A stretch of 34,970 nt of DNA from a virus (Duplodnaviria; Heunggongvirae; Uroviricota; Caudoviricetes). The notes beneath the pieces are model-generated. The model was not told where the DNA came from. It worked only from the letters and a program-made list of their open reading frames with translations, and searched no databases. The position numbers and the translations under genes are program-made. The stretch lies in IMG/VR virus record IMGVR_UViG_2529292908_000012; one strand, given 5' to 3'. Below are positions 11,453 to 11,745 of the stretch, piece by piece (the first letter of the stretch is position 1; each line of letters opens with the position of its first letter).

Positions 11453-11532
11453 ATTGCCCCCTTACGCTGACACCAGTTTTCCGCCAACACTCAGTTGTTG
11501 TCTTGCAGGTGCAGAAGCCCCCGTCAGTATGT

Positions 11533-11745
11533 TCATCTGGCGATCCTGCTCTGCTTCACGGATACCATTTTTCGCGCCAGCAATTGCCAGAGCATTACGC
11601 AAACCCAGTGTGTTACTGTTGGGATTAGCTGAAGGTGAGCGAATCCAAGGGATACGGTACTATCACCAGATGCAGCATGTGCCTGTGCAGTTAATCCACC
11701 TAAGCCCAGAGTTGCGCACACAAGAAATTTTGTGATACTTTTCAT
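11533..11745 (-). pseudogene. lom: lom/ail/pagC-family outer-membrane protein gene, N-terminal fragment only
   Basis: Signal peptide MKSITKFLVCATLGLGGLTAQAHA followed by ASGDSTVSLGFAHLQ (Ail/Lom-like first beta-strand); similarity lost after about codon 39 (about nt 11628). Confidence 0.5.

Follow-up and report, generated by a model that had tools for sequence, protein, structure and literature searches.

Defective lambdoid prophages of E. coli, exemplified by Rac, DLP12 and Qin of K-12 and by the defective prophage pool of O157 Sakai, carry internal deletions that remove regulatory or morphogenesis genes, while morons and some late genes stay in place. Among the phages described so far, the locus studied here is most readily compared with 933W (AF125520) and phi24B (HM208303) of Sepvirinae/Traversvirus. 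The gene order at the end of the late region was compared in 933W, phi24B, PhiR5_2, FORC_069 and DETEC-S792 and is invariant: the tail-tip gene is followed by L0126, L0127, lom, (hok), L0129, L0130, L0131, L0132 (83 aa), L0133 (421 aa) and the giant gene L0134. The counterpart of L0134 in phi24B, gp47, is abundant in virions and has been proposed to be an ejection protein in a cryo-EM and proteomics preprint (bioRxiv 10.64898/2026.04.10.717836).

The window analysed here is the whole 34,970-nucleotide stretch of viral DNA (IMG/VR record IMGVR_UViG_2529292908_000012). It very probably represents a defective 933W-type (Sepvirinae) prophage of E. coli DEC6C, located in ynfG and scarred by three deletions (J1–J3), of which J3 truncates lom. 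The window shares the genes, their order and their orientation with 933W and phi24B, including intact genes for the 83-aa, 421-aa and giant LPD38 proteins. Apart from the three deletions, it shows the order and the high nucleotide identity of a 933W-type late region. In contrast to the two phages, it lacks lom codons 41–245, hok, L0129, L0130 and L0131 codons 1–94, and it further lacks the Q, terminase, portal and capsid genes. The intact 933W-type prophage of E. coli FORC_069 (NZ_CP023061.1), which lies in ynfG, was used as the reference and serves as a proxy for the true ancestor; its coordinates are prefixed L003. In the blastn comparison, the window aligns with this prophage in four collinear blocks of 99.86–99.98% identity, and three gaps in the window are the only interruptions. 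A fifth block, the int-to-replication region, is 99.985% identical to FORC_069. Compared with other defective lambdoid prophages of E. coli, the decay is very recent here, as the retained DNA is 99.9% identical to the intact relative, and every deletion end could therefore be mapped to the nucleotide (Table 1).

Table 1 Features around the truncated lom gene and the three deletion junctions, in window coordinates.
Feature	Position	Strand	Basis or remark	DNA missing
L0134 homolog, 2,784-aa polyvalent protein	1502..9856	-	Pfam LPD5, LPD1, MuF_C, LPD38	
L0133 homolog, 421 aa, intact	9925..11190	-	186 Sepvirinae-type phage records and distant Vibrio phage homologs	
L0132 homolog, 83 aa, glycine-zipper protein, intact	11201..11452	-	100% identical to FORC_069	
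'L0131 remnant, last 54 codons and stop of 148-aa gene	11462..11627	-	lacks its own start codon in the lom frame	
Chimeric pseudogene ORF, 70 codons	11533..11745	-	Lom residues 1–40 and 30 out-of-frame codons from the L0131 remnant	
lom' remnant, codons 1–40	11626..11745	-	predicted signal peptide and start of first strand of Ail/Lom outer-membrane protein	
Upstream region of lom moron, AT-rich, presumed promoter region	11746..11871	-	GC content, identity to FORC_069	
L0127 homolog (205 aa in relatives), frameshifted	11872..12488	-	T5 instead of T6 at about 12341–12345	
Tail-tip fibre gene (L0125 homolog), intact	12787..14061	-	end of tail genes, upstream of moron region	
J3 (truncates lom)	11626/11627		microhomology TA	2,482 bp (L003 30927–33408)
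J2	14438–14441		microhomology GATA	15,188 bp (L003 12926–28113)
J1	18666/18667		microhomology TA	5,204 bp (L003 3494–8697)

The three separate, clean deletions amount to 22.9 kb, and J3 is the smallest of them. J1 removes the 5′ part of relE, ORF6N, ninB, ninE, the two antirepressor genes ant and KilAC, rusA, ninH and the gene of antiterminator Q. J2 removes the 3′ part of an Rz-like lysis gene, the terminase and portal genes, the N4-gp56-type capsid gene, a tail fibre gene, cor and, in addition, the 5′ part (most) of the L0124 homolog. J3 takes lom codons 41–245 together with the lom terminator, the hok/gef ORF, the homologs of L0129 and L0130, a second terminator-like hairpin, and L0131 codons 1–94, which make up two thirds of that gene. 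At all three junctions, both flanks are collinear with the one reference, 2–4 bp are shared between the joined ends and no filler is present; exact extension of the flanks of J3 confirmed that its TA is common to both sides. No foreign DNA was found at any of the three junctions, and neither the deleted DNA nor the proteins it encodes occur elsewhere in the window. Because the Q, terminase, portal and capsid genes are lost, the prophage is defective and L0132–L0134 are relics.

The lom gene starts with an ATG at 11745 on the minus strand, and its codons 1–40 (11745–11626) are 100% identical to those of the intact gene of FORC_069. The first 40 residues, MKSITKFLVCATLGLGGLTAQAHAASGDSTVSLGFAHLQL, match the 245-aa protein of FORC_069 at 40 of 40 positions (BLASTP, E = 1e-26), and sequence comparison confirmed the match throughout, MKSITKFLVCATLGLGGLTAQAHA|AS included. 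Its annotation in FORC_069 is that of an outer-membrane beta-barrel protein of the Ail/Lom family, and the protein scores 105.5 bits on Pfam Ail_Lom (PF06316) at a cut-off of 23. The intact allele fits the family of lambda Lom and Yersinia Ail, and the remnant still encodes the predicted signal peptide and the first residues. In contrast to the family members, the window copy retains only 40 of the 245 residues and has no beta-barrel, and it is therefore a pseudogene. Alignment with the intact lom of the FORC_069 prophage, a kind of check proposed in the earlier note, mapped the breakpoint to 11626/11627, the limit of lom similarity in an ungapped comparison with base-by-base extension. This result agrees closely with the note, in which lom was seen to be cut off after about 39 codons near 11628.

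Beyond the break, the lom frame enters L0131 out of frame, which generates the 70-codon chimeric ORF. The 70-aa product has no Pfam match at E ≤ 0.01 and does not qualify as a member of the Ail_Lom family. The missing part of lom was searched for in the window: residues 41–245 gave no match in tblastn, and the deleted 2,482 bp gave none in blastn. Since both are absent from the window, lom is not recoverable by a frameshift. A single-frameshift rescue, which the earlier note had named as the finding that would speak against a truncation, is ruled out on this ground.

The stretch upstream of lom has a GC content of 23.8%, compared with 49.9% for the window, and is identical to the stretch upstream of the intact lom in FORC_069. 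It had been described as an AT-rich, promoter-like region. The AT-richness is borne out, whereas a strict sigma-70 consensus scan of 11746–11871 gave no promoter, and the label "promoter-like" refers to the AT-richness only.

On the other side of the break, the 176 bp that had been taken for the leader of the 83-aa gene turn out to be the 3′ 166 nt of the L0131 homolog and a 9-nt spacer. The 54 residues encoded by this remnant are all identical to residues 95–148 of the FORC_069 protein (E = 4e-37). The stop codon lies at 11464–11462 and is separated by the spacer from the ATG of the 83-aa gene at 11452. The 148-aa gene, a homolog of 933W L0131 and phi24B vb_24B_45, precedes the 83-aa gene in all relatives.

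The earlier note had interpreted the junction differently, as the place where the 83-aa, 421-aa and giant genes had recombined into lom as a discrete, exchangeable cassette and replaced its distal part. Such an exchange would agree with the truncation of lom exactly where similarity to lom-bearing prophages stops, and with the position of lom itself in a moron region that is missing from Vibrio relatives. However, the sequence to the right of J3 is the normal downstream neighbour of lom, brought 2.48 kb closer. The site is indeed a recombination junction, but one of deletion and not of replacement: both flanks are collinear with FORC_069, and 2,482 bp between them are missing. Moreover, the proposed boundary coincides with codon 94/95 of L0131 and is located inside a conserved ORF, not between genes. 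A 708-bp probe spanning L0131 and L0132 found the pair intact and contiguous in 420 of 421 E. coli records, the sole exception carrying IS1203 inside L0131. Since L0131 stands intact beside L0132 in these 420 records, the proposed 5′ boundary is never seen elsewhere. By organism, the 186 phage records with the L0127 region are distributed in the same way as the 186 records of close L0133 homologs, and all 186 phage records with L0133 belong to the same phage type. A search for the same 5′ boundary in other genomic contexts, as the note had suggested, found it reused in none of the 421 E. coli records and none of the 186 phage records; the three genes show no recurrent boundary in different contexts.

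The extent of the conserved unit is revealed by Vibrio phage 1.205.O (MG592575, L013 7857–22426), in which a six-gene block corresponding to L0129–L0134 directly follows the tail-tip gene (homolog, E = 5e-28). Positional homologs were found for L0129 (E = 2e-8), L0130 (6e-15), L0131 (7e-6), L0132 (1e-7) and L0133, and the giant protein is 41% identical to its Vibrio counterpart over 911 aa. In this phage, lom, hok, L0126 and L0127 are all absent. The six-gene block is kept even in Vibrio podoviruses without lom. It is thus the conserved unit, upstream of which lom and hok were inserted as morons. The Vibrio arrangement marks all four of lom, hok, L0126 and L0127 as additions in the E. coli phages. 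J3 cuts the third gene of the six-gene unit, and the 83-aa, 421-aa and giant genes are the surviving distal half of this block of presumed virion-internal or ejection proteins, not an inserted cassette. We consider the insertion of a three-gene cassette into lom scarcely credible. The appropriate annotation is a pair of pseudogene fragments, lom' and 'L0131, within a defective prophage; neither a cassette boundary at this place nor independent mobility of the giant LPD38 gene should be assumed. A contig scan with the 421-aa protein yielded only the 552-bp contig NZ_JPLE01000287.1 (Xanthomonas pisi DSM 18956), which encodes a fragment that matches the N-terminus of this protein of E. coli Stx-type phages at 92% identity. 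This contig is probably a contamination of the assembly, and the scan is uninformative on other contexts.

The distribution of the junctions was used to assess their reality. Among about 15 billion proteins, the 70-aa chimeric protein occurs on four contigs only. These contigs are single-run assemblies made by different assemblers (SRR9913975, SRR094133, SRR491164 and SRR094135), and their J3 DNA is 100% identical. J3 is also present in the GenBank contig AIFX01000048.1 (GCA_000249635.2, E. coli DEC6C), which is 100% identical to the window over 11440–12500, including the T5 in L0127. J2 is found on the same contigs as J3 in both SRR9913975 and AIFX01000048.1, and its 75-aa fusion protein corresponds to GenBank EHV62743.1 of E. 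coli DEC6C, encoded on AIFX01000048.1. The window comes from, or is identical to, E. coli DEC6C. The reads that went into the GenBank assembly may be among those of the four SRA runs, and the agreement may therefore show reproducibility of the junction rather than spread among independent isolates. Megablast searches with the junction region and the 8.3-kb span found J1–J3 in none of 5,426 complete E. coli genomes and 50,697 phage records, and the exact J3 46-mer had 0 matches in IMG/VR viral contigs. We conclude that the deletions are genuine, that they are recent and that a single lineage carries them.

As the source is a draft WGS contig and J3 is found in no complete genome, the junction might be suspected to have arisen artificially, in assembly or sequencing. 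The contig also contains at least one likely homopolymer error: the L0127 homopolymer reads T6 in FORC_069 and in two SRA-run assemblies of the same deletion lineage, and T5 in the GenBank contig, where it is probably an error of the draft assembly. Nevertheless, the same J3 recurs in four single-run assemblies by different assemblers in addition to the GenBank contig, and the deletion ends contain no repeats able to mislead an assembler. An artefact is extremely unlikely.

Microhomology of 2–4 bp without filler is a signature of illegitimate recombination or end joining, not of homologous or site-specific exchange. An ancestor almost identical to the intact prophage of FORC_069 has very probably lost 22.9 kb in three deletions, J3 joining lom codon 40 out of frame to codon 95 of the L0131 homolog. 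Each time, two broken DNA ends would have been joined at 2–4 bp of microhomology during prophage decay. The junction anatomy points to RecA-independent illegitimate recombination or alternative end joining as the probable route. Both processes follow double-strand breaks in E. coli; alternative end joining (A-EJ) was reportedly described by Chayot et al. 2010, and Cas9-break studies have reportedly dealt with the joining of such breaks as well. The deletions obtained in these systems are likewise on the kilobase scale, with microhomologies of 1–4 bp and no inserted DNA. They differ from those in the window in being laboratory events with a known nuclease, whereas the source of the breaks is here only suggested by the CCNGG sites beside the ends.

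A deletion adjacent to an IS or mediated by a transposase was also considered. In strain 2015C-3101, an IS1203 lies in L0131, 7–9 bp from the right breakpoint of the window, and the TA-flanked inverted ends of the segment deleted at J3 resemble a Tc1/IS630-type footprint. On the other hand, no IS or IS end is present at any of the three junctions, although IS3-family adjacent deletions normally leave the IS behind, and the supposed "element" would be made up of pieces from two phage genes that are themselves conserved. We regard this explanation as very unlikely, and joining at microhomologies remains our preferred reading of the junctions. In E. coli 2015C-3101 (L007 5416–7175), which carries IS1203 in the L0131 homolog, the LPD38 gene is also frameshifted.

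The deletion ends are located close to CCNGG sites. On the deleted side of the left ends, a CCNGG starts 1, 2 and 1 nt in at J1, J2 and J3 (CCAGG, CCAGG and CCGGG), and on the deleted side of the three right ends, a CCCGG finishes 3, 12 or 66 nt before the end. The reference sites beside the ends are at L003 3495, 12928, 28097, 30928 and 33401. Altogether, four of the six ends have a CCNGG within 3 nt and five have one within 12 nt, at a density of one site per 213 bp. In a Monte Carlo simulation of 200,000 draws, at least four of six ends within 3 nt never occurred (P < 5e-6), and the probability of at least five of six within 12 nt was 1e-5. Although noticed post hoc, the pattern is still unusual in a motif-agnostic control: three random positions share any pattern of four specified bases with P = 0.0019 at offsets 0–2 and P = 0.0048 at offsets 0–3. 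Among 32 palindromic motifs of 4 and 5 bp, CCNGG alone stands out. The ends lie beside such sites more often than expected by chance, as would be the case for restriction scars.

Enzymes of the Ecl18kI/SsoII type have CCNGG as their recognition sequence, which they cut in front of the first C (PMC2577355), and Ecl18kI cleaves about 100–200 times faster if looping brings two sites into synapsis (PMC2978343). Starting from putative cuts at the CCNGG sites, the microhomologies would be exposed once 1+1 nt (J3), 2+8 nt (J2) and 1+64 nt (J1) had been trimmed, and rejoining after such cuts would destroy the sites. The edges of the 2,482-bp segment missing at J3 form a perfect inverted repeat of 8 bp, TATCCGGG...CCCGGATA (L003 30925–30932 and 33401–33408), which the geometry of CCNGG cuts would account for. 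Two of the CCNGG sites are Dcm sites, protected if methylated. We hold it possible, with a confidence that at best approaches an even chance, that the breaks were made at CCNGG sites, the pattern being post hoc. Only tentatively do we suggest that the three deletions may be scars of a putative CCNGG-specific two-site restriction enzyme of the SsoII/Ecl18kI type acting on phage or prophage DNA.

Slippage assisted by hairpins, or breakage at random, is the alternative to breaks at CCNGG sites. In replication slippage or template switching, secondary structure brings short direct repeats together; no targeted break would be required, and the CCNGG sites would be a coincidence. Host-mediated precise excision of Tn10 and Tn5 works by such slippage. 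A local hairpin (TTCAGC-TATCCGG-GCTGAA) has the left end of J3 in its loop, and the perfect inverted repeat bounding the deleted segment could form a stem. As substrates for slippage, however, a direct repeat of 2 bp and a stem of 8 bp around a 2.5-kb loop are very weak. Inverted repeats of this kind are missing at J1 and J2, and the CCNGG association is hard to put down to chance. Slippage is a conceivable origin of the deletions, to which we would give rather less than an even chance.

If the breaks were indeed made by a restriction enzyme, restriction-modification systems would directly shape prophage decay and leave readable footprints. Proximity to CCNGG, if confirmed in other lineage-specific deletions, would become a sign by which genome reduction driven by restriction could be read from the sequences of natural isolates. 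It is the only point of possible wider relevance of this locus. J3 itself is an ordinary deletion scar in a decaying prophage of a well-known type, and the prophage provides a clean, very recent case of decay with every breakpoint at nucleotide resolution.

Through J3, lom, the hok/gef toxin locus and three genes of the conserved virion block were lost or truncated. The hok/gef ORF lies in the spacer between lom and L0129 (L003 31545–31973, deleted in the window), which is 95% identical to the spacer of phi24B. The phi24B spacer has been reported to encode a 20-nt RNA, 24B_1 (PMC4426718). This RNA runs antisense to the leader region of hok. A loss of 24B_1 by J3 is not claimed here, as the 20-nt core differs in FORC_069. 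An Rfam scan of the deleted interval in FORC_069 gave no hit at the gathering score and no annotated Sok-like RNA.

Both terminator-like hairpins between lom and L0132 (L003 31567–31587 and 32425–32444) are located within the interval deleted by J3, and a terminator scan found no terminator-like site left between 11745 and 11452 of the window. According to the annotation of 933W in GenBank, lom is expressed during lysogeny. With both hairpins lost and lom so annotated, transcripts from the presumed promoter region of lom could run into L0132–L0134. From the arrangement of the sequence, such a predicted read-through could lead to transcription of ejection-protein genes in the lysogen.

The 83-aa glycine-zipper protein (11201–11452) has a weak match to Gly-zipper_YMGG in Pfam and a homolog in Vibrio phage 1.205.O. 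The protein carries the annotation "bacteriocin" in many genomes, and a "bacteriocin homolog" was set aside as a contaminant in the virion proteomics of phi24B. Its place in the six-gene block suggests that the 83-aa protein may be a genuine virion or ejection component.
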